This document shows positions 21,074 through 54,446 of a stretch of 64,000 nucleotides of DNA, piece by piece. The first letter of the stretch is position 1. Each line of letters begins with the position of its first letter. Source of the DNA: Verrucomicrobiota bacterium. GTDB lineage: Bacteria > Verrucomicrobiota > Verrucomicrobiia > Limisphaerales > Palsa-1400. The translations under genes were made by a program, and so were the position numbers. Location of the stretch: contig JBEKYR010000008.1 of assembly GCA_049510745.1 (NCBI GenBank), positions 210,232 through 274,231 on the forward strand. The letters run 5' to 3'. Under the pieces are notes generated by a model that saw only the letters and a program-made list of their open reading frames with translations, was not told where the DNA came from and searched no databases.

Positions 21074-21081
<8 letters not shown>

Positions 21082-22398: not shown

Positions 22399-22428
22399 AA
22401 CTGCAACGAAATAACAAAAGGACATAAT

Positions 22429-22719: not shown

Positions 22720-22723
22720 GCCT

Positions 22724-31000: not shown

Positions 31001-34000
31001 AGGCGAGCGTGTTTTACGATGGAACAACCGCGGTAACGAACTTCAACGTCGCGGGAGACCTGACCCCGGCGGATGGCGCGATCACGGCGCAGTTGCCTCT
31101 GGCCCTCAGCGGGTCGTCGCAGATGACGGTGGCGCAATACGCGTTCAGGCTGTCCAGCCCCACCGGCCGGTTCGCGCCGATCACCAACCTCTTCAACGTC
31201 ACCAACTCCGCCTTTGCGCAGTCGTTCACCGGCAACGTGGTCTGTAGCGGCACCAATGTCCCCCATGCTCTGGCCTGTTTGTTTATCCCGCCTTTCAGCG
31301 CGAACATCACTCTAATCGCCAGCAGTCTGGCTGATGGCGACGGCGGCTACCGCCTCAGCGCCCCGCCCGGAACCTATCTGCTCTGCGCTTTCAAGAGCGG
31401 CTTCGTGGCTGACGCCGGAAACGCCCCGGTGCTGGCGCTGGGCGCCAATGCCACGATCCCCACGAACCTGAGTCTGCTTCCGGCCACGTGCAGCCTCTCC
31501 GGCCGATTCGTGGATGCCGCCAACACCAACGCCGGGCTGCCGTGCGTCCATGTGAAAGGAGGCTCGGCAAACGGCCTGGTGACGTCCGGTACCGCGGATG
31601 GCAATGGAAACTTTGCCCTGCCAGCCACGACCGATTGGTGGGGTGTTTTGGGTGACAGTCAGAGCCTTGATTCCCAAGGGTATCTCGGTTTGCAGTCCGC
31701 CGCCATCGTCAACGCCAACGCCGGCAGCGTTGCGGGCGTGACCATCGCGTTGGCCAGGGGAACGGCCCTGGTCTATGGCGCCGTCCAGGATGGGCAGAAC
31801 CATCCGCTGTCAGGTGTCCGGCTCTCCGGCAGTCAAAATGACGGCGCCAGCCCTTATGTGGGCGACGCCACCAGTGACCAGAACGGGAACTACGCGATGG
31901 CGGTCAATGATGCCGGAGTTTGGAACGCCGGCATCAGCGGCAACAATCCAGCCTTTCCCAATTACCTGTGGTCTGCCGGGCTGGGGGATACGACGTTCGC
32001 CAACGGGCAGGCGGTGCAGTGCAATTTCACCGCTCTTGTTGCGACCAACTATATCACCGGCTCGGTCCTGGACAGTTCCAACAATCCCATCACCAACATC
32101 CAGGTCTATGGTTCTGCCACCATCGGCAACCAAGACTACAACGCCGCCAGCGCCTTCACCGATGCCAACGGCAACTATTCGCTGACCGTGGCCAGCGGCG
32201 CCTGGCAGATAACCTTGGATTGCGATGCGCTGGGTTGGCTGGGCTATTGTTGTCCCAACTACCCACCCGTCATTGTTTCCGGCGGCAACGCCGTGGAGAA
32301 TTTTGCGCTCGTGCTCAACAGCGAGGTCCAAGTCACCACTACAAACCTGCCTCCCGGCTACGTCGGCTCTCCTTACGATGTTTTCCTTCAGGCTGCCGGT
32401 TGCCAGCCTCCGTTTGCCTGGTCGGTGGTTTCCGGTTCCCTGCCCTCGGGCCTGCAACTGGCCTCCACCGGAGAGCTTTCCGGCACTCCCAATAACGCCG
32501 ACGCCTTCAATTTCACGGCGCAGGTCAGCGATGCCAACAACAATACGGCGAACCAGGCTTTGTCGCTCATCGTCAATACCAACACGCCGCTGGAAATCAC
32601 GACGGTCTCGCTGCTCACGGCCACCCAGGCCGTGTTTTACACGGCGACGCTGGGGGCTTCCGGCGGGCAGAAGCCTTACAGTTGGTCCCTTGCCCCGGGT
32701 TCAGGCCCGCTGCCGGCCACCTTGTCTTTGGCGACCAACGGCGTCCTCTCCGGCACTCCGGCCACCAACGGGACCTTTTACTTCTACGTGCGCGCGACCG
32801 ACGCGATCAAGACGACGGCTGACCAACTTCTGACCCTGACGGTCAACGGCCTGACCAACAACCCGTACGACTCGAACGTCACTTTTTCCGTCACCCCGTC
32901 CGCCGTGAGCAATTCGTACATGGGAGCCATCACGCTTGAGATTGGCGGTTTGGCCAACGGCGAGACAGTGGTGGTCCAGAAGTATCTTGACGCCAACTCC
33001 AACGGGCTGGTGGACGCGGGCGACTGGCTGGTCCAGCAGTTCAGCTTGTCGGATGGCCTGGCGAGCATGATTGACGGTGTGACCAACAGCAATATTCCCG
33101 GCGACACCGACACGACGCCGGGACAAATCACCGCGAAGTTGAATTTCCGGAACGGCGACTTTATGCAGAACATTGTCGGGCAATATGCGTTCAAACTGTC
33201 CAGCCCGACGGGGCGTTTTGCGCCGATAACGAACCTTTTCAGCGTCACGAACTTCCCCTACGCGCAAAAGTTCACCGGCAACGTGGTCAGCAACGGCACG
33301 AGCACGACGGTGTCCAACGCCCTTGTGCTTTTGTTCCCGCCTCCCCGTGCGGGAAAGAGCGGGCCAAGCGGGTCGCCGCTGGCGGGCGCGGTGGCGGACA
33401 ATTCGGGCAGCTACAGCATTCAAGCGCCTCCGGGGACTTATTCGCTGTGTGCTTTCAAGAGCAATTATCTCGCCAACTTCTCCACCATGCCGGTTCTCAC
33501 TTTGGGCAGCGGCGCGACCGTCACCACGAACCTGGCGCTCACGAACGCCACGTCCAGCATCTCCGGCAACCTGGTCGATGCCAACAATTCCAGCATCGGA
33601 CTGCCCGCCATTCTTTTGTCGGCCCAAGCGGCCAACGGCCTGATGGATGTGAGCTTCACGGACACCAACGGCAATTTCACCGTGGGTGTCGCATCCGGCC
33701 AGTGGGGTCTGCGCGCCGATGACACCAGCCTGATTGTCCACGGCTATCTTGGATTGCAGAATAGAACCTACGCCAACGCCGGGCAGACTGGTGTTGCCCT
33801 CGCCGTGCCGCAGGCCACGGCGCTGTTTTACGGCAGCGTGAAGGACACTCTGGGAAATCCTTTGACGGGAATTGACGTTTATGCCAGCGACAACAATGAC
33901 GGCCTCTATGAAACCGACGGCTACACCGATGCGAACGGGAATTATTGGGCCGCTGTGCTGGGCGGCCTGGGCAGCGACGATCCATGGCAGGTGGATCTCA

Positions 34001-37000
34001 GCAGCAACAGTCGTCTTGCCAATTACCTTGTTTCGCCGCCGGGCTTTGATTCAAACGGCGGCACGAACATGGGCGCCGGACAGGCGGCGCTGGCGAACTT
34101 CACCGCCCTTCTTGCGACCAATTACGTCTCCGGCTCTGTCAAGGACAACAACGGCAGTCCGATCGCCGGTGTCGGGGTCTGGGCCGGCACAACCATCAAC
34201 GGGTTGAACTACAACGCGCAGACCGTGGACACAGACACCAATGGCAATTATTCGGTGATGGTGGGCAATGGCACTTGGACGATTGGCATCAACTTCGGCC
34301 AATGCGGTGACTGCCTTCCCGGCGAGTATCTCTGCCCCCCGACTCAATCGGTTGTGATTTCCAACAACAATGGCACGGCCAATTTCACCGCCCTTCTCGC
34401 CACCAATGAAATCACCGGCTCGGTCACGGATAGCAGCGGCCATCCCATCGGCGGCGTTCGGCTCTTTGCCAATGGCACTGTTGGCGGCGTGTCTTACCAA
34501 AGCCGCCAGGACACCGAGGGCAACGGCAGTTGCAGCCTGAACGTGGCCAACGGCACTTGGTCTGTCGGCCTCTATTGCAGCGGCTCCGACAGCGACACTT
34601 TGGACAACATTCTCGGCCCCGGCAATTACATCTGTCCGGCCAGCCAGAATGTGACCATTACCAACAACAATGGCACGGCGAGTTTTATCGTGCAACTTTG
34701 CGGCGTCACCATCACGACCACTTCACTGCCCGCCGGCCAGATCAATGTCTATTACGATCAGTTCCTCCAGGGTTCGAGTTGCAGCGGCACGCTCAGTTGG
34801 TCGCTCCTTTCCGGTTCCCCGCCGCCGGGTTTGACCTGGAACCCTTCATCCGCCGAAATCAATGGCACACCCACCACGGCCGGCACATACGATTTCACCG
34901 TCCAGGTCACTGACGGCCTCGGCCACTGGACGAATCAGAATTTCTCGCTTTACATCGCTTCGTCTCCTTCGCCGCTGCAAGTGACGACCGCCTCCCTGCC
35001 CAACGCCACCCAGGGGGTCTTTTACAATCAACAACTCCAGGCGTCTGGCGGACAACCGCCCTATGCGTGGTCCCTTACCCCGGGGTCGGGCAGCCTGCCG
35101 ACGGGATTATCGCTGGCAACCAACGGCGTCATTTCCGGCGCCCCGGCCCTCCATGGAACTTTCTACTTTTACGTGCGGGTCGCCGATGCGGCGAGTGCGA
35201 CGGCGGACCGGGTCTTGAGTCTTGCATTGCAGCCCGCCGCCACCATCACCAACGGTGTCACACTCAGCACTTGGTACCAGTTTACCGGCGGCAACGATGG
35301 CGGGAGTCCCAAGGCCGGACTGGTGCAGGGCAACGATGGCGCTTTTTATGGCACGGCATACAGCGGCGGCACGATGGGCGATGGCACGGTCTTCCGCATA
35401 GCCACCAACGGCGTGCCCATTGCCTCGGTATCGTTCGATTATGCCAACGGCGGCGGTCCCGAAGACGGGTTGGTGGAAGGCCGGGACGGCAGTTTTTACG
35501 GCACGACATCCTATGGCGGGGCGAACGGCTGGGGCGCGCTGTTCAACGCCACCACCAACGGCGCGCTCACCGCTCTCCACTCGTTCAGCTTCGGTGACGG
35601 CGGCAACAATCCGTGTGCCGGGTTGGTGCAGGGCGGCGATGGGAATCTCTATGGCACGACACCCTATTGGGGCACGATCTACTTCACCACGAACTACAAT
35701 GGCACGGTATTCAGGATAAGCACCAACGGAGCGTTCCAATCCCTCTACTCATTCACCGGCGGCAACGATGGGGCCAATCCCACCGCCCAACTGGCACAGG
35801 GCAACGATGGCAGTCTCTACGGGACGACACACGATGGCGGCTCGAACGGCAGCGGCACGGTATTCAAGATAAGCACCAACGGGGCGTTCCAATCCCTCTA
35901 CTCATTTACCGGCGGCAACGATGGGGGCCATCCTTTGGCCGGGCTGGCGCTGGGGAGCAATGGAATTTTTTATGGCACAACCACGGGAGGAGGCGCGGGC
36001 GGTTGCGGCACTGTGTTTGGCATAACCACCAACGGCGCGTTCAATGCGTTGTACTCGTTCACCGGCGGCAACGATGGCAATTCTCCGTATGCCGGCTTGG
36101 CGCAGGGCAGTGATGGCAATTTGTATGGAACCACACTCTATGGAGGCGCGGTTGGCTCCGGCACCGTGTTTGGCATGACCACCAATGGCGTCCTTGCCAC
36201 CCTCTACTCCTTCTCCGGGTCTGGCGACGGCTCCCAGCCCCTCGGAAGCCTTCTGCAAGGAAGCGATGGCTGTTTTTATGGCACGACGAGCAGAGGCGGC
36301 GCCCAGGACGATGGAACTGTTTTCCGCTTGAGCCTCACTTCCGCGCCGTCGCCCGACTTGGCGCCCCTCTCGGTGGCGGCGCCGGCCAGCGTGATCACCC
36401 CGCAGCCCAACGCGGCGGTCCAGGTGGCTTGGAGTGTGACCAACCAGGGAGCCGGGCAGGCGCCGGGCGGTTGGTGTGACCGGGTCTGGTTCTCCACCAA
36501 CGGAGTGCTGGACGGAAATTCGGCGGCGCTGGGCGACTTTTTCAACAGTCAAACATTGCCTCCCGGCGGCAGCTACCGGCAGACCAACACCGTGACCCTC
36601 CCTCTGCCCGCGATTGCCGGCGGCAGTTACACCCTGTTCGTGCAGGCGGATGTCTATGGCCAGATTTACGAATTCAACAAATCGAACAACATTTCGGCGG
36701 GCGCGCACGGCCTCTTCACCCTTGCCCCTCCCGACCTGGCTGTTTTGGCGGTAAATCCGGCGACCAACAACGTGGTGTTTTATCCGGCCAGCCCGCAGTC
36801 GCCCACCGTTCAGTTGACTTGGGCGGTGACCAACCAGGGCGCGGGGCCGGCTGCGGGCAATTGGTATGACAGGGTTTGCGTCTCGACCAGCGTCTCCATT
36901 GCCGACGGGGTCAGTTCACAGTACTTCTGGCAGGACTGGACCTCGCCTCCGTTCGCGGTGGGAGAAGAGTATCAAGTAACCAACACGATCTGGCTGCCGC

Positions 37001-43000: not shown

Positions 43001-45234
43001 CGGACAGCGACGGGAATTACCAGCTTACATACAATCCATTGGCCGGCTTCGCCGGCACGCTGACCATCTGGGCGGCAAATCCGCTGGTGGTGGACGTTTT
43101 GAATGAGGCGCAAGTCGTCATCTTCCGCATGTACGCGGTGCCTTCGGCGGCGGACGTGCAGATGTCCAAAAACGGCCAGTTGAGTTTTTCAATCCAGTTG
43201 TTGAACCCCGGCGATGTGCCGCTGACCGGTTTTACCAGTTCGGTTCAGGCCTGGCAACTGTCCGGCACCAACCAGATTCCAATTGGCACAGTCACGGGAA
43301 CCAACCAGATTCCGCCGGGTTTTGTGCTGGGTCCCGGCCAGACAGAAACGGTCAACCTGCAATTGTCCGCCGCCATCAACGCGCCGGATAACGCGCAGGC
43401 GCAATTCACGATCACCTCGGCCGAGGGCGCCACGGCCACCCTGACCGCCAGTTTGGATCTGTTCCCGGCCGTGCCGGTGCTCTCGGTGGTGAATCCGGCG
43501 GCGGGCTATTTGGAGGTGAGCCTGAACCGCGGCGACCAGCTTAGCGGCCAGATCACCATCGCCAACAGCGGGTTGATGGCGTTGCAGGGCATCACGCTTG
43601 CGCCGCCGACGAACAGTTGGATGGCGGTCAACCTGCCCGTGGCCAGCGACGGCCGGATTCACCTGCCGGATTTGGGGATCGGCCAGTCCAACACCTTTGC
43701 CGTCGTGTTCACGCCGCCGACCAATACGGTTCTGGGGTTTTATCAGGACGCGATCACGGTTCAGGGAACCAATGCGGCCAGTCCGTTCCCGGTGAATGTC
43801 TATGCCCAAGTCACCTCGTCGCAGACGGGCGGCATTCAGTTCGAAGTGGACGACATCCTCGGCGAGCAGGTGCCCAACGCCGCGATCCGCCTGCACAATA
43901 ACGCGCTGTTGTCCGACTGGGGACCATTCTACACCGATACCAACGGCTTGGTCACGGTCACCAATTTGCAGGAGGGCGATTGGAACTGGCAGGTCACGGC
44001 CGCCGGCTGCTCGGGCAATGTCGGCACGGTAACGGTCATTGCCGATCAAATCGTTTACCAGCCCACCCGTCTTTCCCGAAGCCTGGTCACGGTGAACTTC
44101 ACCGTGGTGCCGGTGCCTTTTACGGATTCATACCAAATCCAGGTGGAACAGACCTATGAAACCTACGTGCCGGTGGGGGTCCTGGTGCTCGACCCGCCGT
44201 ACCTGGGTTTCACCAATCTTCCCTCCGGCTTCCAGGCCACATTCACGACGAGCGCGGAAAACCAGGGCTTGGCGCAAATGACCGATGTGACGTTGACCGG
44301 TTCCGAAGCCAACGGCTTTTCCGTAACCCCTTTGATTACTTACATTCCAGTTCTCCTGCCGATGCAGTCGGTGGAAGTGCCTATGGTCGTGGCTCTGGAT
44401 TCTCCAGGGGTTGCCGGAGGCCAGAATGCACAGGCACGACAGTCCACCTCCGACTGCGTCAGTGCGCAAAACATTCAGGACTTCCTAACCGGAGTGATGG
44501 TCCTCGCGCAGGCCCTTCAAATGTGCCCCAAAGACAGCGCGCCGGAGACGAGCCTGGCCAATGAAATCCTCGAGGATGAAATTGAAGAAGCAACCATCGG
44601 GGAAAGTTTGGAAGGATCCGTCGCAGGAGCCACTGTGGCAGCCGAATTAGCCGGCGCGCTGATTGGGTGTGCCCATCCTGGCATCTCCAGTTTCTTCCTG
44701 GGGACCGGCGGCTACAGTGGCCCTTCCTACAACACACCGGTTGCTGCGCCAGGTTTTAACTTGCCCAATGGCTGTTTCTCCGCCTCCACCTCCGTCCTGA
44801 TGGGCGATGGAACGGAAAAACCGATCTCGGAGATTCGCATCGGCGACACCGTTCGCAGCGGTCCAAAGCCGGGAAACATCGCGGTTGTCTATGCCGTCTA
44901 TTCGCTGACCGCCACCAATTTCCAGGAAATCCGGTTTGTCAGCGCCGACGCGAAGAACGCGAGGAGTTTGACCGCCACCGACGAGCACCGGTTCTGGGTT
45001 GATGGCAAAGGCTGGGTGGCCGCCGGAGTTGTGGCCGCCGGTGACTGGCTGTTCGATTCGTCTGGCCGGCGCCTCAGCGTGGTTGCCAGCCAGTCCGTGA
45101 CCCGCAGCATGCCGGCTTATACCTTTAGTCTCGCCGATGACAACGCGTTCTACGCCAACGGCGTTTTGGTCCATGACCTGTGCGGCGCGCCGCCAGCCGG
45201 ATCGCGAGTCCGGACATCGGAGGTGGCCAAATGA
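28087..45234 (+). CDS. Giant (~5,700 aa) secreted multidomain surface protein with C-terminal Hint domain
   Basis: Signal peptide ending LAGA; carboxypeptidase-regulatory-like and putative-Ig repeats; GNLYGTT beta-propeller repeats (~35260-36330); three CARDB-like PDLA units (~36350-37490); FN3/Ig domains; Hint at 44773-45177. Confidence 0.9.
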   Translation: MRFVKQERFGLSRARLSLAVGTAQMLLLCHLAGAVTFSVTPAAVGNTYNGVITLQVGGLTNNETVVVQKFLDLNTNGVIDAGDWLVQQFNLTDGQPGMVIGGIVNSNVPGDTDTTPGQITAQLNFRNGDMVQNFVGQYAFKLSSPGGHFEPITNFFSVTNFPYAQKFTGNVVSNGTGTTVPNALVLLLGSGNKKALAGAVADNSGGYTIAAPPGTYMPVALKSGYVANFSTPPVLTLSSGQTNTTNLTLLSATASISGQLADANNSSIGLPGILLSARATNGLMGVSFTDGNGNFSVSVQTNLGQWEVAPNESGLIVHGYLELQNKGTSATAGQTNVTLALPRATALFYGSVKDNLGNPMPGLEIYADDNNNVYEGDGYTDANGNYAAVALGGLNNDPWRTQISSDTSPTNYFFSQPDFDWNDGTNISAGEAVLANFTAVLATNTISGSLKDGSGHPLGGIGVEASATINGVYYQLEAVDTDTNGKYSLNVANSTWTVAVLQYGSSDSLPANYFCLSQTVVISNNNATVNLTALFGTNTISGSLKDDSGNPIAGVWVWDNAWINGVTYYQGGKETDANGNYSLNVVNSTWTVGVNSCSDCGDGLPVKYLCPPTQTVVISNNNGTANFTALLATNDITGVVKDSNGNPIGGVGVWANATINGAGYFQYVDADTNGNYSLNVANGSWTVGVECNGGSDSLDNILGSGNYQCPNNQSVGITNNNGVANFAVPLCSGLTITTTSLPAGEVNVYYDQFLQASSCSSTLTWSLLAGSLPPGLTGDPFSGEIYGTATSAGAYDFIVQVIDGNGLRANQALSLTINGGELQVTTTSLSSGTTNVAYTSRQLTARGGQPPYRWSLASGMLPPGMSLSTNGVISGTPTVAGNSNFVVQVTDSVSATATKALSLVIYPFSTSVSFNVTPPAVSNFYTGIITLQVGGLVTGETVLVKKYRDNNGNGLIDAGDSEVQQFQLTDGQASVFYDGTTAVTNFNVAGDLTPADGAITAQLPLALSGSSQMTVAQYAFRLSSPTGRFAPITNLFNVTNSAFAQSFTGNVVCSGTNVPHALACLFIPPFSANITLIASSLADGDGGYRLSAPPGTYLLCAFKSGFVADAGNAPVLALGANATIPTNLSLLPATCSLSGRFVDAANTNAGLPCVHVKGGSANGLVTSGTADGNGNFALPATTDWWGVLGDSQSLDSQGYLGLQSAAIVNANAGSVAGVTIALARGTALVYGAVQDGQNHPLSGVRLSGSQNDGASPYVGDATSDQNGNYAMAVNDAGVWNAGISGNNPAFPNYLWSAGLGDTTFANGQAVQCNFTALVATNYITGSVLDSSNNPITNIQVYGSATIGNQDYNAASAFTDANGNYSLTVASGAWQITLDCDALGWLGYCCPNYPPVIVSGGNAVENFALVLNSEVQVTTTNLPPGYVGSPYDVFLQAAGCQPPFAWSVVSGSLPSGLQLASTGELSGTPNNADAFNFTAQVSDANNNTANQALSLIVNTNTPLEITTVSLLTATQAVFYTATLGASGGQKPYSWSLAPGSGPLPATLSLATNGVLSGTPATNGTFYFYVRATDAIKTTADQLLTLTVNGLTNNPYDSNVTFSVTPSAVSNSYMGAITLEIGGLANGETVVVQKYLDANSNGLVDAGDWLVQQFSLSDGLASMIDGVTNSNIPGDTDTTPGQITAKLNFRNGDFMQNIVGQYAFKLSSPTGRFAPITNLFSVTNFPYAQKFTGNVVSNGTSTTVSNALVLLFPPPRAGKSGPSGSPLAGAVADNSGSYSIQAPPGTYSLCAFKSNYLANFSTMPVLTLGSGATVTTNLALTNATSSISGNLVDANNSSIGLPAILLSAQAANGLMDVSFTDTNGNFTVGVASGQWGLRADDTSLIVHGYLGLQNRTYANAGQTGVALAVPQATALFYGSVKDTLGNPLTGIDVYASDNNDGLYETDGYTDANGNYWAAVLGGLGSDDPWQVDLSSNSRLANYLVSPPGFDSNGGTNMGAGQAALANFTALLATNYVSGSVKDNNGSPIAGVGVWAGTTINGLNYNAQTVDTDTNGNYSVMVGNGTWTIGINFGQCGDCLPGEYLCPPTQSVVISNNNGTANFTALLATNEITGSVTDSSGHPIGGVRLFANGTVGGVSYQSRQDTEGNGSCSLNVANGTWSVGLYCSGSDSDTLDNILGPGNYICPASQNVTITNNNGTASFIVQLCGVTITTTSLPAGQINVYYDQFLQGSSCSGTLSWSLLSGSPPPGLTWNPSSAEINGTPTTAGTYDFTVQVTDGLGHWTNQNFSLYIASSPSPLQVTTASLPNATQGVFYNQQLQASGGQPPYAWSLTPGSGSLPTGLSLATNGVISGAPALHGTFYFYVRVADAASATADRVLSLALQPAATITNGVTLSTWYQFTGGNDGGSPKAGLVQGNDGAFYGTAYSGGTMGDGTVFRIATNGVPIASVSFDYANGGGPEDGLVEGRDGSFYGTTSYGGANGWGALFNATTNGALTALHSFSFGDGGNNPCAGLVQGGDGNLYGTTPYWGTIYFTTNYNGTVFRISTNGAFQSLYSFTGGNDGANPTAQLAQGNDGSLYGTTHDGGSNGSGTVFKISTNGAFQSLYSFTGGNDGGHPLAGLALGSNGIFYGTTTGGGAGGCGTVFGITTNGAFNALYSFTGGNDGNSPYAGLAQGSDGNLYGTTLYGGAVGSGTVFGMTTNGVLATLYSFSGSGDGSQPLGSLLQGSDGCFYGTTSRGGAQDDGTVFRLSLTSAPSPDLAPLSVAAPASVITPQPNAAVQVAWSVTNQGAGQAPGGWCDRVWFSTNGVLDGNSAALGDFFNSQTLPPGGSYRQTNTVTLPLPAIAGGSYTLFVQADVYGQIYEFNKSNNISAGAHGLFTLAPPDLAVLAVNPATNNVVFYPASPQSPTVQLTWAVTNQGAGPAAGNWYDRVCVSTSVSIADGVSSQYFWQDWTSPPFAVGEEYQVTNTIWLPQQSGTYYLIVSVDDGNYIYEADKTNNVLASAPLTVNYQVRPPDLAVVSASAPATVASTQPYPGVQVTWSVTNQGTGVASGGWYDRVWFSTNGVLDGNSRDIGDFYQSQNLAAGGNYQQTNAVILPVTNSLSYTLFVQVDVYDQVYEPNKLNNLSAGVPEAFTLTPLWTIFATNNPPADGYISGTGSYLTGATNVLTAHPNFGYLFVNWTEGANVAGTNLSLTNVVFTNHVFAANYADATPTHVVTTATSPAGLAAVAGAGTYSNGQTAHFSAPLAITNPPSLYTFEQYTEGNNPVSSAAAFSKTFSTFDPASGQYVAVYSASPLLPIVVNVSLNLANPVPATTNFIVTVQFDRSMRTNPSPIIVLTNSAATLQPAVSGNGSWSATALSNDTYSTPPVTFISGMDGTNQIIVSGAQDLAGNVMALTNAGSAIVDATPPPVPVLAVTASNSSSVTVAWAAYAAPPDLSYFRVFFQPTNFTSVAGLPILTSLGSGARSFQFGGLALDTRYYAAVQAVDYAGNASGLSVLPVILPETVPPPVSVQAAPVGADSVLLSWNSYNTAALLGFAGFTLYEAPGNFTSVPGSLVGVPLGPSVQSYQVSGLDRAKTYYFAVVGFNLTNGFNPNVTTAVWSDPYAGNIGIDTTIGGAGQSQVPVYHSIVVVSNATLTLEPGTTLLFAPGASLTVQQGSLAANGTALAPIILDSANDTPGHIPAPGDWGGVILGSGAGSSSLNFVEVLYGGGLTVSGCSPAVSAFTANNNIPCGLALQNGAALTTSDALLTANGIGIQQSDTSALTIQNSVIQNNGTNAVASGSSPLNAASDWWGTAQAGTLAAQLQGNIVYTPFLTYEPVLTPAIGTSNGLTQVGSGLVNLQLACRTAEGMRLSEDYTFTGVFFTPFTNNTTFPLSAGGGLKRVYAQFRSVTGQTNAPLEVDVNYITAGPVIQSFSLAQGQTLNRPLTVTGSATAVLGMQDMEFYVDGVLAGTNAGGNLSQFFDIRALPNAIHEVKLLARDQSGNIATLQNTVIIALTPPPAPVITSPAAGLIVKTNLLSVSGSAEAGMNIQLTRNGQIVGATVADGTGLFTVSNATLVEGLNTLVAVAFDSTGTTPSAARNVIVETIPPAALVMNTPVYAPGTGLNVSWNFPPTGKLAVTFQLFWSQAPFGETNEATGHSIVLTGMADTLQGLSDGLYYFGVVGYDVTGAASPLSALVSTVYDATPPALTVSYSRAPPLGVGPVAISLTSSEALAGTPSLTLQPCGSVSPVLLSLTNVAVNTWQTAFTVTSSTPSGPVAVTASAQDLAGNVFNGVPNGPALAIDTVAPAASITTVPPPPVQTTNNVNVAVSLALTKPAGPGTMPTLSFTTPTGTNIVLTLSGGGSNWSGTLPLTPAAGAGFGQFSFSAQDAVGNVGSNLLAGGQLELYNTALPSAPAAPSGLSATSLAGGYVWLAWNAVSNAQIYRVYREPGTNLVPPAVLDLDHITSNGVADLPPSDGSYRYGVTASRLGSESGISNVVVAVSVRTPPLAPTNVTANLAASGVQISWQEPAGGTTPDHYNVYRNGTLIQTVSSVSPVVDYPPLGTNSYVVAAVDAVGNQNPSAPAVLFLPVAPVSNLAALSIAGQAPVLTWNTGGGSVGCNVYRNGIRQNAALITGTNYTDNLPLSDVVRYAVTAVNGSAQESPPRMVTVYPVRLSLLVNSLGRGADNPLLTGYFDQFQVGVSNLGSSNSLPLQQVQLLRTITGLEPLVVTLGAPTNVSAGTQLQELITVPESSVVAAQSVQVTVFQQTDSAGSTVVYENTFNLTDSRLPGTEIALSVNQLPLVGGVTPFQLQIFNRGYADMEVIVSRAFGAQPGDVFVSVQNSFGQEVSRTALSGLVSGATYLMDGTAYVTIPPGASHILTITNVLVPAALGGATNVTFLGVASEIYNQLETTNQQVSGPLSGSMVSPSLAQTPYYGTAQTDKADYSNNDPILISGQALDRTSGLPVPNVPLNIGFAARGFHWYQSVTTDSDGNYQLTYNPLAGFAGTLTIWAANPLVVDVLNEAQVVIFRMYAVPSAADVQMSKNGQLSFSIQLLNPGDVPLTGFTSSVQAWQLSGTNQIPIGTVTGTNQIPPGFVLGPGQTETVNLQLSAAINAPDNAQAQFTITSAEGATATLTASLDLFPAVPVLSVVNPAAGYLEVSLNRGDQLSGQITIANSGLMALQGITLAPPTNSWMAVNLPVASDGRIHLPDLGIGQSNTFAVVFTPPTNTVLGFYQDAITVQGTNAASPFPVNVYAQVTSSQTGGIQFEVDDILGEQVPNAAIRLHNNALLSDWGPFYTDTNGLVTVTNLQEGDWNWQVTAAGCSGNVGTVTVIADQIVYQPTRLSRSLVTVNFTVVPVPFTDSYQIQVEQTYETYVPVGVLVLDPPYLGFTNLPSGFQATFTTSAENQGLAQMTDVTLTGSEANGFSVTPLITYIPVLLPMQSVEVPMVVALDSPGVAGGQNAQARQSTSDCVSAQNIQDFLTGVMVLAQALQMCPKDSAPETSLANEILEDEIEEATIGESLEGSVAGATVAAELAGALIGCAHPGISSFFLGTGGYSGPSYNTPVAAPGFNLPNGCFSASTSVLMGDGTEKPISEIRIGDTVRSGPKPGNIAVVYAVYSLTATNFQEIRFVSADAKNARSLTATDEHRFWVDGKGWVAAGVVAAGDWLFDSSGRRLSVVASQSVTRSMPAYTFSLADDNAFYANGVLVHDLCGAPPAGSRVRTSEVAK
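44773..45177 (+). other. Hint (intein-like) domain within the giant protein
   Basis: Block A CFSASTSVLMGDG.KPISEIRIGD, block B LTATDEHRFWV, block F/G YTFSLADDNAFYANGVLVHD. Confidence 0.88.
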
Positions 45235-48200
45235 GATATTTGCCTGACTTCGGGTGTCGTTTCCGGGCGGGTGTTCTGCTCCTGCTCTTGTTGCCTTGGA
45301 CCGGCGCGGCCCAGGAGCAACAACAGGGACTCTGCGCCCAGGTCAAGATCATGATTTCGCAGCAAATGACCCTGGAACGGATCGGCTTTCAGGCCACCCT
45401 GCAAATCACGGACAATGACCCGAACGATCCGATCACTGGGTTTGCCGCCAATCTGACCTTTGAGAATCCCGCCCTCTCCACCAACGGAACGGTCAACGAT
45501 TCCTCCAGCCTGTTCTTCGTCCAGCCGCCGACCCTGCAAAACGTGGCCAGCGTCAACGGCAGCGGCGTCTTCTCGCCGGGGCAGACCGCGACGATCGTCT
45601 GGTTCATTATCCCCACGACCAATGCCGGCGGCATGAGTCCCAACGGCGTTGTCTATAATGTCGGGGCCAAGTTGAGCGGGCAGATTCGCGGGGTGGATAT
45701 CCCCGCCTCCAGCCTGACGGTCTATCCGGCGCCGATCACCGTCCAACCCGACGCCCAGCTTGCCATCACCTACTTCACGCCGCGCGATGTGACGGGGGAC
45801 AACCCGTTTACGCCGCAGGTGGAAAGTCCCATCCCGTTCACCTTCGGGGTGCTGGTGCAAAATGTCGGCTACGGGACGGCCAACAGCGTGATCATCAACT
45901 CGCAGCAGCCCAAGATCGTTGAAAACACGCAGAATCTGCCATTGATCGCCCAACTGCTCGGATCGCGGGTGAATGATTCGCCGCTGGCCAACGCCAATCT
46001 GACGGTCAACCTGGGCAATCTCTTGCCTGGCCAGGCCAGCAAGGGGGCCTGGGACATGATTTGCTCGATCTCGGGCACGTTCCTTTCCGTCAACGCCACC
46101 TACACCCACTCCACCGCGCTGGGCGGCGCGGAAACTTCGCTCATCAGGTCGGTCAACGCCTATCTTTTCTTGCACGAGGTGCTGGACGACCTGCCGGGCC
46201 GCGACAGCGTCCGCGATTTCCTGGCCGACACGAGCGGGACATTGGATGCTGTCAACAATCTGATCCCCGACTCGCTCTACGAGAGCGAGGGCGGCGTCTT
46301 TCCGGTCAACTTCATGACCAACGCCTCGGTGTCCGGCTCGGGCAACCCGGTGCAGGTGAACCTGAACGCGAATTTCGCCGGCTGGGGTTACATCCGCCTG
46401 AACGACCCCATGCAAGCGGCTTTGCCCATCGCCAGCGTGGTGCGCTCGGACGGCAAGGTTCTGAACACGAACAACTATTGGACGAGCATTCACTACGAGC
46501 CGGCAACCAATTTCAAGGATACCTACCTGAACTTGTTTGATTACACGGGCCTGGGTTCCTACACCTACACGGTGACGTACGCCAATTCCGTGGCCAGCAC
46601 CAACCCGCCCGTGACGAGCCTGCTGTTCGCCGGACCGTCCACGTTCACCAATGGCGCCTATTATGTCACGCCCGAAACCCAGATGTATTTCATCTCCCAG
46701 GACACAACTCCGGTCAGCATCTATTATAGTCTCACCAACGGCCCGTTCCAGCCCGCCTACCCCTTCAGCTTGAGCAGTCCGGGCCAGTATCAGGTGACGT
46801 ATTACGCCACGGACGCCAACGGCAACCAGGAAACCAATCACACGGCCACGCTGGTGGTGGCGGGGGCGGCTTCATTGGGCTTCGCCAGCGTCAACGTGCC
46901 GGCCCAGCCGCTCTTTGTTCCGGGGGACGCGCTGTCCGTCCGGCCGGGAATTGCTCCGATCACTTTCCAGGCGTTGGCCAATCCGACAACTGTCAATGCG
47001 CGGGTGGACATTTTCCAGGGGGTGGCCGGCTGGGCCATGGTGGCCGGCGTGCCTTCCTCGCCGACGGCCGGCGCCTCGGCGTCGTTGAGGATTGGGGGCG
47101 GCAACGTGGATTTCTACATTTATCAGGTGAATTCCGGCGCCTGGAGCGCGGAGCAACCGGTCAGTTCTCCGCTCACTTTGTCCGGTTTGGGGCCGGGAAG
47201 CAACACGGTGTCCGTCCTCGGCCGCTCGCAATACGGAACGTATTTGGACCCGAGCAATGCGGTGAGCGTGGGTTGGGTGGTTGATTCGGCGGCGCCGGCC
47301 ACGGTCATCACGGGCGCGCCGGCCACTCCAAGTCTTGACACCTCGGCCCAATTGACCGTCGGCGGCGCCAACGTCACCGGCTATCGCTGGACCATTAACA
47401 ACGGGTATTACCGCCCGGACACCAACGTGGCCAGTTCGATTGTCCTGACCAATCTTACCGGGACGCAACAGGTCGTGGCCGTGCTTGGCGACATCAACGG
47501 CATCGAGCAGCCGACCAATAATCCCACCACCGTGGCGTGGACCATCAATGCGCTCTACGGTTACGACCTCAGTTCGCTCACGGCGGTAAGGAGCGTGGCG
47601 TTCACGAACATCAGCGGACCGATTACCTTTGACTGGGATGGGAGCAGTGACGCCGGAGTGCCGCAGCCGCCGGGATGGTACACGGTGCGGGTGACGCTCA
47701 GTGACACGCTGGGTCACACCAACTTCACCACCGGCCTGGCGCAAATCAACGCGTTGTCCGGGACGAACATCACCCTGGCCGATTTCACCCGCGGTTCCCA
47801 GAGTCCTTATGCGCGCGGACGCCGGGTGGTGTGGCAGGACCAGAGCGACGGCAACTGGGAAATCTACGCCCGCGATCTAACCGCCAGCAACGGCGCCATT
47901 GTGCAAGTCACGCACACCAATTTGAGCCAGGAAAATCCCCGCACCGACGGCCGTTACGTCGTCTGGCAGGCCCAGCAGCCCAATGGGACTTGGAATGTCT
48001 ATTGGGACGATTTGGACGGCACCAACGGGCCGCAGGCGCTGACCAGCACGCCGACGATCAATGAAGTCAGTCCGGCGATGGATTGGCCGTGGGTGGTTTA
48101 TCAGGGGCGCTCGGCCCTCAACACCAACGCCCCCTGGCAGATCTTCGCCTGTGATTTGGTCACCACCCAAACCGTCCAGGTCTCCGTTTCCTCGCAGGAT

Positions 48201-49218: not shown

Positions 49219-50058
49219 ATGCATCGCAAACCTTCCATCTTGTTTCGGTGGCCGGCCTGGGGCGCGGCGGGCTGGGCCATGACGCTGGCTGCCGCCGGCG
49301 TGACCGTGTCCGATCTGCAAACGCAACTGGCCGGCGGCGGGAAGATCACGGTGGTTGATGTCCGCGACCCGGCGGTTTTTGCGCAGGCCCATATTCCCGG
49401 CGCGATCAACATTCCCGCCGAGGTGTGCCAGCGGAAGAATTTGCCGCCGCTGGGCCGGGTGGTCATTTACGGCGATGGCCTGGGCCGGGACGCCGCCAGC
49501 ATGGTGGATGAGGCGGCGGCGGCGCTGGGAAAAAAGCCGGGAATCACCGCGGAAATCCTCGAAGGCGGCTTTGCCGCCTGGGAAAGCGCGCATGGCCTGA
49601 CGACGCGCCGCGAGGGCAAGAGACCCGAAGCATTCAACTACATCACCTACGCCCAATTGAAGGCGGCCAAGGCGGGCGGCGTGATCCTGGTTGATTTGCG
49701 CAATCCCACGGCTGCCGCGCGGCAATCCCTGGCCGCCGGCTCCAATTCCCCCACCCAGCCGCTGACCGACCTGGGCCGGGAATTTCCCGGCCTGAGCCTG
49801 GCCAAATCCGTCCCGGAAAAAAGCGCCTCCGGCAAGTCCGGCGCCGCGCCTTTGCTGGTTTTGATTGACAGTGCCGATGGCGCGGCGGAGGCGGCGGCCC
49901 GGGCGCTCAAAGGGAGCGGCGTCAAACGTTATGCCATCCTGGCCGGCGGCGAGTTGATTCTGGCGCGCCACGGCCAGGCGGGTTCGCAGCGAAGCAGTGC
50001 GGGCATCGTTGGGTCAGGCCAAAACCCGGCCCCGGTCCAGGGCGCAACCAACTATTAA
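49219..50058 (+). CDS. Exported tandem rhodanese-like domain protein lacking catalytic Cys
   Basis: VVDVRDPAVFAQAHIPGAINIP...ILEGGFAAW; second domain LVDLR...ILAGG. Confidence 0.8.
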   Translation: MHRKPSILFRWPAWGAAGWAMTLAAAGVTVSDLQTQLAGGGKITVVDVRDPAVFAQAHIPGAINIPAEVCQRKNLPPLGRVVIYGDGLGRDAASMVDEAAAALGKKPGITAEILEGGFAAWESAHGLTTRREGKRPEAFNYITYAQLKAAKAGGVILVDLRNPTAAARQSLAAGSNSPTQPLTDLGREFPGLSLAKSVPEKSASGKSGAAPLLVLIDSADGAAEAAARALKGSGVKRYAILAGGELILARHGQAGSQRSSAGIVGSGQNPAPVQGATNY

Positions 50059-50063: not shown

Positions 50064-53000
50064 ATGATTTCGTCAACCCCATCTTCCCTGCAGGCGCCCG
50101 GCCGGGCACGGTTCGGAGGGAATTGGGCGCTGACGTTGGCCCTCCTGATCCTCGGCGCGTATTCGGCCGCCGCGCAGATCGTCGTCACCAATGTCACGAC
50201 GGTCAATGTGACCCTCGGCGGTTTCTCCGTCGTCGGAGCCGTCTCGCCCGCGATCACGCCTTCGATGACGGCCTCCATTTCCGTTTTCGCTGATGCGGGG
50301 GGCGTGACCAACTTGGCGGGACAAGTGGGCATCGAATACTATCCGCTGCACACCGGCGATCCGACGCTGACCAATGCCTACGACCGCCTTGTGGGCGAGG
50401 CGGCCTTGCGCCAGCAGACCATGGGTTTGGGCCTCTTTTATGCGCGGGTCTCGGACTGCTCCCCCGGCACGGCTTACTTCTATCTTGTTGCAGTCTCCAA
50501 CACCAACGGCCAAACCACCCTCTTCCCCGCCTCAGGCCCGCTGCCGTCGGTGACAACGGCCCGGGAAACCTCTTTCGTGTTGGATTCCGAGCAACTGATT
50601 GTCACGCTCAACGACTCCAGCCCCGCCGGGGCCATCCTCACGCTTTCCAATACCAATACTCCCAGTGTTTTGGCGGCGGTGGTGGGCGATGGCGCGGGCG
50701 CCAACCAGGCGTTCTTCAGCCTGAATGATTTTATCGCCGCGGCGGGCGGGACGAATTATCTGCCGGTGGGAAACCAGCAGTTCACGGCCCATGTTCTGGG
50801 GCTGTCCCCGCAAGGTCTCTCGCAGACTTACACCGTGGCGTTTTCGACCAATTTTTCGGTCGGATCAGCGACGCCGGAGGTTCTTGGCGGCGGGTCGGCG
50901 ACGACCTTGGCGGCCTCGGCCATTACCGCCGGCAGCGCGACGTTGAACGCCTCGGTCAATCCGAACGGGGCGCCAACCACGGTCTATTTCGAATGGGGAG
51001 CGACCACCAATTACGGCAGTGTGACGAGCAGCGATGTTCTGTCGGCGAACTTGAACACCGCTCAACCCGTGGCGCTGGGCATAGGCGGATTGCTGCCGGG
51101 CGCCACCATCCACTTCCAGGTGGTGGCGGTGAACAGCGCCGGGACCAGTTACGGGGGCGATTTGACGCTGGTCACGCCCGCCTTGCCGCCGACGGACGTT
51201 ACCTTGCCCGCCTCAGGCATCACCCCGACCAATGCAACGCTCAATTCTTCTGTCACACCAAATGGCGCTCCCACCGCCGTTTTCTTCCGATGGGGCGCGA
51301 CGACCAATTACGGCAATTTCACCGCGACGAACACCATTTCTTCCAAGTTGAGCAGCGCCCGCGCGGTGGCGATGCCCATTGGCGGGCTGACACCCGGCGC
51401 GACCAATCACTTTCAGATCGTGGCGGTCAACAATAGCGGGACGGCCTACGGCGCGGACCTCACGGTTGTCACGCTGCCGTTGCCGCCGCTCGCGGTGACC
51501 TGGGCCGCTTCAGGCATCACCCCCACCAATGCGACGCTCAATGCTTCGGTCACGCCCAACGGCGCGCCCACCGCGGTTTTCTTTCAATGGGGTGCGACGA
51601 TAAATTACGGCAACTTCACGGCGGCCAATACGTTGTCGGCCAATTTGAGCACGGCGCAGGCGGTGTCGGCGCTCATCAGCAACTTATTGCCCGGCACGAC
51701 CAACCATTTCCAAGCGGCGGCCTCGAACAGCGCCGGAACCTCTTACGGCGCGGATTTGACGGTGGTCACGCCGTCTCAGCCGCCGATCGCCGTGACCCTG
51801 GCCGCCTCAGGCATTACTCCGACCAATGCAACGCTCAATGCTTCGGTCACACCCAATGGCGCGCCTACCGCGGTTTTCTTCCAATGGGGCGCGACGACCA
51901 ATTACGGCAACTTCACGGCGGCCAATACGTTGTCGGCCAGTTTTTACACGGCGCAGGCGGTGGCGCTGGTGATCAGCAACTTATTGCCCGGCACGACCAA
52001 CCATTTCCAAGCGGCGGCCTCGAACAGCGCCGGAACTTCTTACGGCGCGGATTTGACGGTGGTCACGCCGTCTCAGCCGCCAATCGCCGTGACCCTGGCC
52101 GCTTCAGGCGTCACCCTGACCAACGCAACGCTCAATGCTTCGGTGACACCCAATGGCGCGCCTGCCACGGTTTTCTTCCGATGGGGCGCGACAACCAATT
52201 ACGGCAACTTCACCGCGACGAACATCATTTCGTCCAAGTTGAGCAGCGCCCGCGCGGTGGCGATGACCATTGGCGGACTGGCGCCCGGCACAACCAACCA
52301 TTTCCAAGTGGTGGCCTCGAACAGCGCCGGAACCTCCTACGGTGCGGATTTGACGTTGGTCACGACGCTCCAACCGCCGCTGGCCGTGACCCTGGCGGCA
52401 ACGGGTGTCACCTCGAACAGCGTTGTGCTTAACGGCAGCGTCAATCCGAATGGCGCCGTTACAACGGTCTATTTTCAATGGGGCGGCAGCGCCAGCTATG
52501 GCAACTTCACGGCAACCAACACAATTCCCTCCGGCTACAGCGTTGTTTTCGTCAGCAACGGGATTTCAGGACTGGCGCCGTTGACGCTCTACCATTACCA
52601 GGTCATCGCCGCCAACAGCGCCGGAACAAATTACGGCGCCGATCAGACCGTCCTGACCCCGTTGCCGCCCGTGGCCGTCACCTCGCCGGGCGCCATCACG
52701 AACGCCGCGACAACGTTCAAAGCCGTGGTGACCCCCAACGGCGCGCCCACAACCAGTTGGTTTGAATGGGGCACAACGATCGCTTACGGCAACGCCACCC
52801 AGCCAGCCAGCGTCGGCGCTTCTCTCAGCGCGAATTCGTTCAGCAGTCTGCAAACCGGATTCCCGCCCGGCATCGTCTATCACTACCGGGCGGTCGCGAC
52901 CAATTACCTTGGCCGCGCCAACGGCGCCGATGCCCTTCTGGAGTCCGCGGTCATTTCGTTGAATGGCGCAAATCCGTTGACCAACCAATGCCATTCGCCC

Positions 53001-54446
53001 TTCGTTGATCCGGGCGTTCACTTGGTTTCGGCCGCGCCGCTGGCGATTGCGGCCGCCTCGGGTGGCGCTTTCAGCCTGGCCCTGAAGGCCGATGGCACGG
53101 TGGCTGGATGGGGCCAGAACACCTACCGTCAGGCCACGCCGCCACTGAATGTGAGTAACGTCCTTGCCGTCTCCGCCGGACAGGATTTTGGCCTGGCGCT
53201 GGTCACAGGAGGGACAGTCCGCGGATGGGGTTGGAATGGCCAGGGCCAGATTACCATCCCATCGAGCTTGACCAACGCCGTCGGCATCGCCGCCGGGCTG
53301 GATTTTGGTCTGGCCGTCAAAACCGATGGAACAGTGGCGGCCTGGGGCGACAGCAGCGATGGCGCGTTGAGCGTCCCTGCCAGCCTGACCAATGCGGTCT
53401 CGGCCGCCGCCGGCGGCTTTGGCGTTGCCCTGACACGCAACGGCACGGTAACGGGATGGGGCGATGATTCGTATGGGGAAACGATCATTCCGGCGAATCT
53501 GACCAACGTTGTCTCGGTTGCGGCCGGCATTTACCACGGCTTGGCGCTCAACGGTGACGGAACCGTGGTGGCTTGGGGCCAGGACTATTACGGTCAAACG
53601 GACGTTCCGTCCGGTCTGAGCAACGTCATCGCCATCGCCGCCGGCAGCTATCACAATCTGGCCCTGCGAGCCAATGGCACCGTGGCCGCGTGGGGTGATG
53701 ACAGCTACGGCGAGGCGGACGTTCCGGCCAATTTGACCAATGTGGTGGCCGTCGCCGCCAGCGATTTTCACAGTCTGGCGCTCCAATCCGGCGGCGCCGT
53801 GATCGCGTGGGGCGATAACAGCCTGGGAGAGTTGAACGTCCCGGCCACTCTCACCAATTTGAATGTCAGCGTCGCAGTCCTGAACCCTGTCGATACCAAT
53901 ACGCCCGACGCTTACGCGCTCAGCTATGCGGTCATCGATTTTCTTGGGGGCGTCGGCACGACCAACCGCAGCGTGGAGGTGGTGGACACCCTTCCGCCCG
54001 TTCTGACCCTTCTGGGCGCCAACCCGTTCACCAACCTGCTGAACACGCCGTGGGTCGATCCCGGAGCGAGTGCCATGGACGCTTGCGCGGGCAACTTGAC
54101 CGCCGGCATCGTGACCAATGGCGCGGTCAACACATCGGTGGCCGGAAGTTATGTCCTGACCTACTCGGTCGCCGATCCGAGCGGCAATACGGCCGTCACC
54201 AATCGCCTTGTGATCGTGAGCACTTCAGCGCCGATGTTTCAGCAGGCGACCGTGGCAAGTCACGCCATCACCTTCACTTGGAGTTCCGTGGCGGGCGCGA
54301 CCTACCAGGTGCAATACAAGAACAACCTTAATCAGCCGGCATGGAGCAATCTCGCGGCTCCCGTCGTCGCCGGCGGCGCCACGGTCTCCGCCAGCGACGG
54401 GATTACCAACACCGACCGCTTTTACCGCATCGTTCAATTGCCGTAG
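50064..54446 (+). CDS. Secreted protein with FN3-like tandem repeats, RCC1/BLIP-II-type repeats, Ig-like domain and C-terminal FYR domain
   Basis: About seven ATLNASVTPNG..FQWG.TTNYG units; HxLAL..dGTVvAWG repeats; DTLPPVLTLLGANP; ends FYRIVQLP. Confidence 0.88.
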   Translation: MISSTPSSLQAPGRARFGGNWALTLALLILGAYSAAAQIVVTNVTTVNVTLGGFSVVGAVSPAITPSMTASISVFADAGGVTNLAGQVGIEYYPLHTGDPTLTNAYDRLVGEAALRQQTMGLGLFYARVSDCSPGTAYFYLVAVSNTNGQTTLFPASGPLPSVTTARETSFVLDSEQLIVTLNDSSPAGAILTLSNTNTPSVLAAVVGDGAGANQAFFSLNDFIAAAGGTNYLPVGNQQFTAHVLGLSPQGLSQTYTVAFSTNFSVGSATPEVLGGGSATTLAASAITAGSATLNASVNPNGAPTTVYFEWGATTNYGSVTSSDVLSANLNTAQPVALGIGGLLPGATIHFQVVAVNSAGTSYGGDLTLVTPALPPTDVTLPASGITPTNATLNSSVTPNGAPTAVFFRWGATTNYGNFTATNTISSKLSSARAVAMPIGGLTPGATNHFQIVAVNNSGTAYGADLTVVTLPLPPLAVTWAASGITPTNATLNASVTPNGAPTAVFFQWGATINYGNFTAANTLSANLSTAQAVSALISNLLPGTTNHFQAAASNSAGTSYGADLTVVTPSQPPIAVTLAASGITPTNATLNASVTPNGAPTAVFFQWGATTNYGNFTAANTLSASFYTAQAVALVISNLLPGTTNHFQAAASNSAGTSYGADLTVVTPSQPPIAVTLAASGVTLTNATLNASVTPNGAPATVFFRWGATTNYGNFTATNIISSKLSSARAVAMTIGGLAPGTTNHFQVVASNSAGTSYGADLTLVTTLQPPLAVTLAATGVTSNSVVLNGSVNPNGAVTTVYFQWGGSASYGNFTATNTIPSGYSVVFVSNGISGLAPLTLYHYQVIAANSAGTNYGADQTVLTPLPPVAVTSPGAITNAATTFKAVVTPNGAPTTSWFEWGTTIAYGNATQPASVGASLSANSFSSLQTGFPPGIVYHYRAVATNYLGRANGADALLESAVISLNGANPLTNQCHSPFVDPGVHLVSAAPLAIAAASGGAFSLALKADGTVAGWGQNTYRQATPPLNVSNVLAVSAGQDFGLALVTGGTVRGWGWNGQGQITIPSSLTNAVGIAAGLDFGLAVKTDGTVAAWGDSSDGALSVPASLTNAVSAAAGGFGVALTRNGTVTGWGDDSYGETIIPANLTNVVSVAAGIYHGLALNGDGTVVAWGQDYYGQTDVPSGLSNVIAIAAGSYHNLALRANGTVAAWGDDSYGEADVPANLTNVVAVAASDFHSLALQSGGAVIAWGDNSLGELNVPATLTNLNVSVAVLNPVDTNTPDAYALSYAVIDFLGGVGTTNRSVEVVDTLPPVLTLLGANPFTNLLNTPWVDPGASAMDACAGNLTAGIVTNGAVNTSVAGSYVLTYSVADPSGNTAVTNRLVIVSTSAPMFQQATVASHAITFTWSSVAGATYQVQYKNNLNQPAWSNLAAPVVAGGATVSASDGITNTDRFYRIVQLP
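50899..52945 (+). repeat. Intragenic tandem repeat, 297-bp period in the core
   Basis: GC(C/T)TCAGGC... unit anchors near 51210, 51507, 51804 and 52101; central copies almost identical. Confidence 0.85.

Follow-up and report, generated by a model that had tools for sequence, protein, structure and literature searches.

The stretch of DNA analysed here (the window, 64,000 nucleotides of contig JBEKYR010000008.1 from a Verrucomicrobiota bacterium) contains a gene for a giant secreted protein of 5,714 amino acids (aa) that ends in a Hint domain. This Hint domain tips a conserved four-gene operon, in which the giant gene is followed by genes for a 1,327-aa partner protein, a Cys-less rhodanese, and one more secreted protein (Table 1). 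From N- to C-terminus, the giant protein comprises a signal peptide, carboxypeptidase-regulatory-like/He_PIG Ig repeats, GloVer repeats, CARDB, and FN3 and Big domains, and it closes with a predicted partner-binding domain (here referred to as the pre-Hint domain), a helical linker, and the terminal Hint. The Hint domain occurs in a single copy in the genome of the window (G000), and a single-protein scan of genome contigs found no relative.

The domain is a genuine Hint. It scores above the Pfam cut-offs of both PT-HINT (40.6 bits against 27.7) and Hint (34.7 against 29.7), AlphaFold2 modelled its fold (residues 281-410 of a 434-aa model) with predicted local distance difference test (pLDDT) values of 91-98, and the top Foldseek matches were BIL2 (6y75, E 1e-10) and the BIL of Clostridium thermocellum (2lwy, E 6e-9). 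A preceding model-based inspection of the DNA (the sequence-only reading) had described Cys1 and the block B motif TDEH as intact, the terminal His-Asn (HN) as replaced by His-Asp (HD), and the usual block F His as absent, and all of this holds: Cys1 is encoded by TGT and is residue 5,562 of the giant protein, T69-D-E-H72 occupies 44977-44988, and CAT-GAC encodes His134-Asp135 within H-D-L-C-G at the domain end. The block F His of BIL2 (NNHNFFA) and of Protein Data Bank entry 8w20 (GFHSYYV) aligns with Asn124 of the window's DDNAFYA, and the same register was obtained against the HN-type Hint of locus L219. As had also been read from the letters, 18 residues follow the HD pair, and no toxin domain or immunity gene follows the Hint in the window, where the next gene encodes the signal-peptide-bearing partner.

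The giant and partner genes are translationally coupled: the stop codon of the former overlaps the start codon of the latter (ATGA at 45231-45234), and the Shine-Dalgarno sequence of the partner gene (GAGGTG, 45220-45225) lies inside the giant gene's tail codons ('EV'), so that the 'EVxK' end of the tail is explained by the translation signals of the next gene. The stop/start overlap is found in 70 of 74 Hint loci, the partner gene comes next in all 14 extended Hint loci, a gene for a tandem rhodanese-like protein that lacks the usual Cys is present in 13/13 Hint loci with enough sequence, and the fourth gene in 11 of the 12 with sequence past the rhodanese gene, as well as in genomes G510 and G511. 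The idea that the rhodanese and the fourth gene are Hint-specific helpers was rejected, since both occur in two Hint-less sister loci (L216 and L246) and therefore predate the Hint.

Some variation on this organisation was observed. One genome (G014) carries two Hint operons (L232 and L233) on one contig; the partner frame of L232 is split into two open reading frames (ORFs), and the rhodanese and fourth-gene frames of L233 look shifted. In L069 (3480-3800, minus strand), Hint and partner share one open frame via a low-complexity Gly/Lys/Arg stretch with a leftover signal-like segment, which is either a true fusion or an assembly frameshift. Genes 4 and 5 of the window (54200-54446 and 56000-56217) and many fused relatives end in a tail of about 60 aa that closes with F[FY]R and that may, speculatively, be a lineage-specific sorting domain; the giant-Hint protein and the partner both lack it. 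Within the giant gene, internal duplications (1.7 kb, 75% DNA identity) and GloVer repeats (TIGR03803) occur at 28190-34600 and 35300-36200.

Table 1. Features of the giant-Hint operon, in positions of the window.
Feature	Position	Strand	Remarks
Giant secreted protein, 5,714 aa	28090..45234	+	ATG at 28090 (ORF 28033/28090-45234); start codon judged by eye
Signal peptide of giant protein	about 28090-28191	+	Judged by eye
Pre-Hint domain, conserved	43930..44397	+	From alignments; beta-hairpin 44080-44178 is the predicted partner interface
Variable helical linker, then Gly-rich tether	44398..44772	+	Upstream of Hint
Hint domain	44773..45177	+	Cys1 44773, Thr69 44977, His72 44986, His134-Asp135 45172-45177; no Asn, no block F His
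18-aa tail LCGAPPAGSRVRTSEVAK	45178..45234	+	Cys137 at 45181-45183, then Gly138; stop TGA 45232-45234
Partner, 1,327 aa	45231..49214	+	Signal peptide, all-beta 'CAQV' domain, FlgD-Ig and beta-propeller repeats
Putative mature N-terminal arm of partner, QEQQQGLC	45312-45335	+	Cys8 at 45333; cut site placed by the conserved A-x-A/Q pattern
Tandem rhodanese-like protein	49219..50058	+	Pfam PF00581; N-terminal signal-like segment; no Cys at what we take to be the usual active-site loop
Fourth gene	50064..54446	+	Conserved N-terminal region of about 285 aa, variable middle (FN3 and RCC1 repeats here), C-terminal 'FYRI' tail

Conservation of the active site and relation to known Hint systems

Hint sequences were collected (130 in total) if they came after this upstream domain or ahead of this partner gene, and 101 remained after removing those at least 90% alike. 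Judged by record title, close relatives belong mostly to the Verrucomicrobiota, and Hint copies are spread over several phyla. Cys1 and His72 are present in all 101 relatives, as are Trp75 and Trp81, and Thr69 in 99 (Ser in the other two). The invariant residue at the C-terminal end is Cys137 (101/101; Gly138 in 96), rather than the 'HD' pair: in the HD-x-C end that the sequence-only reading had singled out, the Cys stands throughout, whereas HD is kept in 62/101 only. Position 134 is His in 74 relatives, Arg in 17, and Gln in 7 (non-His in 27), and position 135 is Asp in 81, Glu in 9, His in 8, Gln in 3, and Asn in none. His is found at the block F position in 12/101, and the +1 residue is variable and mostly no nucleophile (Leu 48, Met 11, Ser 10, Arg 9). 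Tails past position 136 measure 8-42 aa (L069, which runs on in frame, was trimmed for this count). Identity to the window has a median of 0.55 in the upstream domain and 0.44 in the Hint, compared with 0.15 in the linker and 0.20 in the tail, which indicates that the Hint is under constraint.

The domain is thus a conserved Asn-less type of Hint rather than a truncated toxin Hint: the truncation reading, under which homologs should mostly carry HN and a toxin, fails because no relative has the Asn and all end in short tails. As a baseline for the +2 Cys, a PT-HINT search of 301 genomes of the phylum gave four matches at E <= 1e-10, and 25 other PT-HINT loci were available in all; among the 21 canonical HN-type Hints of these loci with a readable end (four were unreadable), four have a +2 Cys. 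Since it is present in some canonical Hints, the +2 Cys appears to have been available in the parent family already and to have reached fixation here as HN disappeared. The replacement of HN by HD had also been taken to mean that the domain is built for N-terminal transfer only. This does not follow, since cyclisation is also possible in inteins with a terminal Asp, Gln, or Glu (PMC4031507). Regular C-terminal cleavage across the family nevertheless looks unlikely from the alignment, and this is better argued from the presence of His at position 135 in 8/101 relatives and from the erosion of the assisting His residues, including the mostly missing block F His.

Judged by its sequence, the window's Hint lacks the defining features of the A-type BIL (HN), the Hedgehog Hog domain (a sterol region), and the intein (a +1 nucleophile). 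With A-type BIL/PT-HINT domains (PF07591; 2lwy, 8w20) it shares the fold, Cys1, TxxH, and the HxFWVxGKGW stretch, as well as a score over the Pfam cut-off, and these are the likely source of this type of Hint, because related loci hold RHS-Hint(HN)-toxin genes. Unlike A-type BILs, the window family has no His-Asn end and has mostly lost the block F His; unlike pretoxin HINTs, described ahead of toxin domains (PMC3482391), the family has no toxin or immunity gene, and its Hint is always terminal and coupled to the partner gene. Its +2 Cys, fixed in 101/101, compares with 4/21 in canonical PT-HINTs. The class 1 intein is a poor match too, since the host protein has no +1 Cys/Ser/Thr and the chain ends after a short tail.

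With the Hedgehog Hog domain (PF01079; 1at0, 6tyy), the window's domain shares an exported precursor, a C-terminal position, Cys1 and TxxH, the absence of Asn, and a conserved Cys at the fold end that, by analogy, could take a branched thioester like C143 (PMC12054796). The sequence match to Hog spans the first ~75 residues only, and the equation of Cys137 with C143 is an analogy; the window family also has no sterol-recognition region. The window's Hint likely works like the first steps of Hedgehog. The Hedgehog-like logic proposed in the sequence-only reading gains from the invariant C-terminal Cys, whereas its lipid or glycan acceptor finds no positive evidence.

The best structural match, BIL2 of the Tetrahymena BUBL1 locus (6y75, 6tmm), needs no ATP to pass its N-extein on to an amine in another protein (PMC8616854). 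BIL2 is eukaryotic, has ubiquitin-like flanks, and contains Asn143 (mutated in the crystals); the window's Hint has neither such flanks nor the Asn. A- and B-type BILs and their cleavage behaviour have been described (PMC7765530). B-type BILs (Hint_2), and the secreted bacterial proteins with a C-terminal Hint-like domain of Burglin 2008 (PMC2362128), have no intein C-terminal motif, and N-terminal cleavage is described or expected for them. The latter proteins resemble the window's protein in being secreted with the Hint at the C-terminus; they were compared by description only and may overlap with the present family, and the available text of that paper does not mention a giant stalk or partner operon. 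The window's domain gave no match to Hint_2 (PF13403) at E <= 0.01 in Pfam, and precomputed annotation lists Hint_2 for 2/39 homologues.

In Sec-exported RHS polymorphic toxin loci (PMC3482391) there is a further likeness, in that related loci have their RHS genes between the pre-Hint domain and the partner gene; unlike those, the Hint clade has no RHS cage, toxin, or immunity gene. C-type BILs of Bdellovibrio are also on record (PMC3403396), and the available text on bacterial teneurin-like toxins (bioRxiv 10.1101/2025.11.11.687626) shows no match to the window's operon. No paper on the giant/partner pair, the operon, or this Hint family was found in the literature searched, which excluded most subscription papers.

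The partner protein, its predicted complex, and the likely origin of the Hint

From the conserved pattern at the cut site, the mature partner probably begins seven residues ahead of an invariant Cys (Table 1). The resulting arm motif, Q-x-x-G-x-C, was found in 73/75 Hint loci, in 0/73 standalone Hint-less loci, in 1/32 fused loci, and in 3/41 loci with too little upstream sequence. Among 66 metagenome loci, the partner N-terminus was readable in 65, with a Hint upstream in 59; the other six comprised two with less than 450 bases upstream, three of the sister type, and L298. L298 (1-4100) is a member of the Hint clade without a Hint: its giant protein ends 11 residues past a Cys at a Cys1-like position, an acidic tether replaces the Gly-rich one, and Asp stands in place of the otherwise near-invariant arm Gly, while the arm Gln is kept.

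The C-terminal part of the giant protein (43930-45231) and the N-terminal part of the partner (45312-46592) were modelled together in three runs, with an alignment of 56 rows for each of the two parts. The pair scored 0.87 in the three runs and the best control 0.01; the mark used for this score is reached by 116 of 157 solved complexes and by 2 of 215 mismatched pairs. The runs shared at least 90% of contacts, and the partner had a pLDDT of at least 86. On the giant side (chain 1 of the model, whose numbering is used here), the predicted interface consists of the beta-hairpin (residues 51-83) plus residues 26, 114-116, 143-145, and 197-200, the last of these (44518-44529) lying in the linker and including Cys199; on the partner side it includes residues 5-36 and 253-267, among others. 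It is thus predicted that a swapped beta-hairpin holds the giant protein to its partner, with the Hint outside the confident interface, which names no Hint residue; by the tool's own terms, such absence is no evidence against contact. The model supports a complex of stalk and partner and says nothing for ligation.

Around this interface, the partner model shows disorder in residues 1-4 of the arm, and the tether is 27-49 residues long in most relatives. The linker is poorly modelled by AlphaFold2 (pLDDT 29-53), helices being the one statement possible about its fold, and it contains conserved Cys codons at 44455 (55/56), 44524 (46/56), and 44668 (55/56). Foldseek returned weak beta-sandwich matches alone for the partner domain (TM 0.25 or less), with no close solved fold. 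The number of Cys residues from the pre-Hint domain to the partner Cys is even in 56 of 69 fused proteins, which gives no support for a linker-Cys8 or Cys137-Cys8 disulfide, and mutual information across the 56 paired rows gave phylogenetic signal alone. Partner binding appears to be independent of the Hint, because the same two domains also occur fused without a Hint, or split without one.

These Hint-less arrangements are common. Of 190 proteins examined, 167 contain the full pre-Hint domain: 81 of them have no Hint and carry in the same chain the CAQV domain of the partner's N-terminus, 43 end in a Hint (one fragment and the window's own protein included), 43 have neither (many fragments among them), and none has both. 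A pattern scan of genomes gave 120 CAQV loci, with a Hint just upstream in 12 and not in the other 108, of which 65 had at least 1,500 bases upstream to inspect; among 50 genomes of this kind, 39 contained the pre-Hint domain. Twenty loci were selected for a close placement of the pre-Hint domain and CAQV on a single contig. Each of them has the giant gene ahead of a separate CAQV gene, and no Hint follows the pre-Hint domain; 18 were flagged as RHS by motif count, 13 have giants that end at the pre-Hint domain or a short Cys/Gly tail later, with the large gene next, and 5 contain a canonical HN Hint within the RHS gene. The pair of pre-Hint domain and CAQV is widespread, either fused or split around RHS toxin genes (L181-L230, e.g., L211, L213, L219, and L223; P0042-P0191), and was found, judged by record title, in Pseudomonadota, Desulfobacterota, Verrucomicrobiota, and others.

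In trees of the CAQV domain (FastTree, 116 rows; IQ-TREE in quick mode, 38 rows; rooted at the midpoint or with a chosen outgroup), all Hint loci fall on one branch (support 100) that is nested among standalone partners and adjoins Geothermobacter and Thermodesulfovibrio loci, not the fused forms. On these trees, the Hint clade arose from forms that were split already, and not by fission of a fused type. The idea that the Hint marks such a fission and restores a fused ancestor is accordingly weakened, split Hint-less pairs being common as well. The simplest history, and a likely one from the arrangement of the loci, is that an RHS-Hint-toxin cargo lost its RHS part, its toxin, and its Asn.

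Other endings were seen in this wider group. About 250 aa past the pre-Hint domain, the giants P0069, P0110, and P0127 close with a 'KYGGKEVRxxIRCY'-like tail common to the three, and they lack both the Hint and CAQV. A protein (L026, 973-3453) from a genome of the same order carries at least three tandem canonical Hints (ending HN-K) before a membrane segment, and HN-K-GGG ends like these also occur in L320 and L332.

Candidate fates of the proposed thioester

Tentatively, and ahead of the other readings, we favour one in which the Hint removes itself via a relay from Cys1 to Cys137, with water or a small thiol as the acceptor. After export, an N-S shift at Cys1 would turn the Gly/Cys1 bond into a thioester; such a shift is proposed because Cys1, Thr69, and His72 are kept, and the equivalents of these residues are those of the N-S shift (PMC4031507). 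The thioester would then pass to the invariant Cys137, on the model of Hedgehog, whose C143 enters a branched thioester and is required even for N-terminal cleavage (PMC12054796). Resolution of the thioester on Cys137 by water or a small thiol, the putative acceptor, would free the Hint, and the giant protein would stay bound to the product of the next gene by the swapped beta-hairpin. The Hint, derived from RHS-Hint-toxin cargo, would have been retained as a processing cap at the place where relatives attach cargo. In line with this, BIL domains 'produce predominantly cleaved products' (PMC7664689), the short tails leave no adduct-binding region past the Hint, and partner binding appears not to depend on the Hint, all of which counts for water or thiol.

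Several observations weigh against self-removal. Its benefit in pure form is unexplained, with nothing following the Hint, and the strong conservation fits a role in ligation at least as well. The confinement of the arm motif to Hint loci is likewise unexplained unless the arm serves the helical linker. The giant protein and its partner are the halves of a gene that is fused in relatives, and such pairs tend to pass the complex test, although the partner domain gave no close solved fold in Foldseek. Cys1 is preceded by Pro in 7/101 relatives and by Val/Ile in 5/101; in engineered inteins, these residues can slow or block thiol cleavage. Cys137, finally, could form a disulfide instead.

It is also possible, though unlikely, that the nucleophile resolving the thioester relayed to Cys137 is an amine or thiol on the partner's seven-residue arm, or on another operon protein, and that the giant is thereby ligated in trans. 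The match of arm motif and Hint given above points this way, as do the translational coupling of the two genes, the freedom of the disordered arm residues to reach in the partner model, and the predicted position of the partner beside the tether in most relatives. The Hint occupies the site where relatives carry RHS cargo. The closest solved folds are BILs that reportedly ligate without a +1 nucleophile, namely BIL2, which attaches its N-extein to Lys residues in other proteins (PMC8616854), and the BIL of C. thermocellum. The Hint-less L298 speaks on both sides, having Asp for the arm Gly but retaining the arm Gln. However, all Hint loci form one clade, so that the match of arm and Hint amounts to a single event, and this clade stems from a split type rather than from fission. 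In addition, partner residues 5-36 are modelled in an interface to which linker residues 197-200 also belong, a contact that could account for the arm with no part played by the Hint, and glutaminyl cyclase, which could block Gln1, was found in 6/23 carrier genomes, though not in G000. The bolder form of this idea, that the operon encodes its own single-turnover protein ligase, in which the giant first grips the partner by its swapped hairpin and the Hint, via Cys137, then welds the two separately exported chains (or the giant and another operon protein) beyond the cytoplasm with no need of sortase, ATP, or a split intein, we consider slightly more doubtful.

Both Cys1 and Cys137 are invariant in an exported protein in which the HD pair varies, and an unfavourable residue precedes Cys1 in 12/101 relatives; a redox-trapped intein structure (3nzm) is also among the Foldseek matches. 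A Cys1-Cys137 disulfide formed after export, which would leave the Hint uncleaved as a redox-triggered switch or structural cap, is improbable all the same, as the residues of the N-S shift are kept. Slightly less probable is the transfer of the N-terminal fragment to a lipid, glycan, or foreign surface as a sortase-free anchoring system, along the lines of the sequence-only reading. The Hedgehog-like residue set agrees with it, G000 encodes a squalene-hopene cyclase, and by eye the giant has no C-terminal anchor, nor the F[FY]R tail of many among 64 listed fused relatives. On the other hand, there is no sterol- or adduct-recognition-like region, the tail being short, variable, and partly set by the ribosome-binding site of the next gene, and the giant could be retained through its bound partner instead. 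Of the 23 carrier genomes, only 14 gave a strong match to the cyclase (E < 1e-100); there was no match in G312 (98% complete) or G291 (100%) and a weak one in G197 (94%) and G445 (96%), and a hopanoid as universal acceptor was rejected on this count. Should ligation take place, a protein encoded in the operon would be a better candidate than a lipid or glycan.

Atypical cis-splicing, in which residue 135 (Asp, Glu, or Gln) cyclises and the x-Cys-Gly tail is spliced onto the giant, is very unlikely. Although such a residue is common there (D 81, E 9, Q 3 of 101), and these can cyclise in inteins (PMC4031507), position 135 is His in eight relatives, position 134 is not His in 27, the block F His is kept in 12 alone, and the +1 residue is usually no nucleophile. 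That the domain is a decaying remnant of an RHS-Hint-toxin gene is largely refuted: a canonical HN Hint does lie inside the RHS gene in 5/20 related loci, and one clade member (L298) has lost its Hint, but 101 divergent copies from several phyla have kept an open frame and invariant catalytic residues.

Hint domains that activate the N-terminal flank alone are already known from Hedgehog and B-type BILs. In the present family, over 100 variants occur naturally in which a two-cysteine active site of the Hedgehog kind is combined with a fixed candidate acceptor next door. To our knowledge, no bacterial acceptors of such N-flank-activating Hints have been described. Natural controls are at hand in the fused forms, the RHS forms, the Hint-less member, and the in-frame fusion, and with small constructs it can be tested directly whether bacterial terminal Hints ligate or just cut. 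If the relay holds true, expressed protein ligation could make use of the domain as a natural thioester generator of about 140 aa that works by Cys relay and does not cleave at its C-terminus; if ligation does, two separately exported gene products would be joined without ATP, sortase, or a second enzyme. As modelled, the strand-swapped pair of giant and partner has the appearance of a conserved core in a surface system that is widespread and carries RHS toxins or other cargo.

Neighbouring genes

Upstream of the operon, an ATP synthase cluster that starts with the beta subunit was identified with Pfam at 19143-26066 (plus strand), an order that is presumably typical of N-type ATPases. Between this cluster and the giant gene, two adjacent 230-aa ORFs lie on the opposite strand (26079-27460, minus), the first of which we take, by its motif, to read like a nucleotide-cyclase domain.

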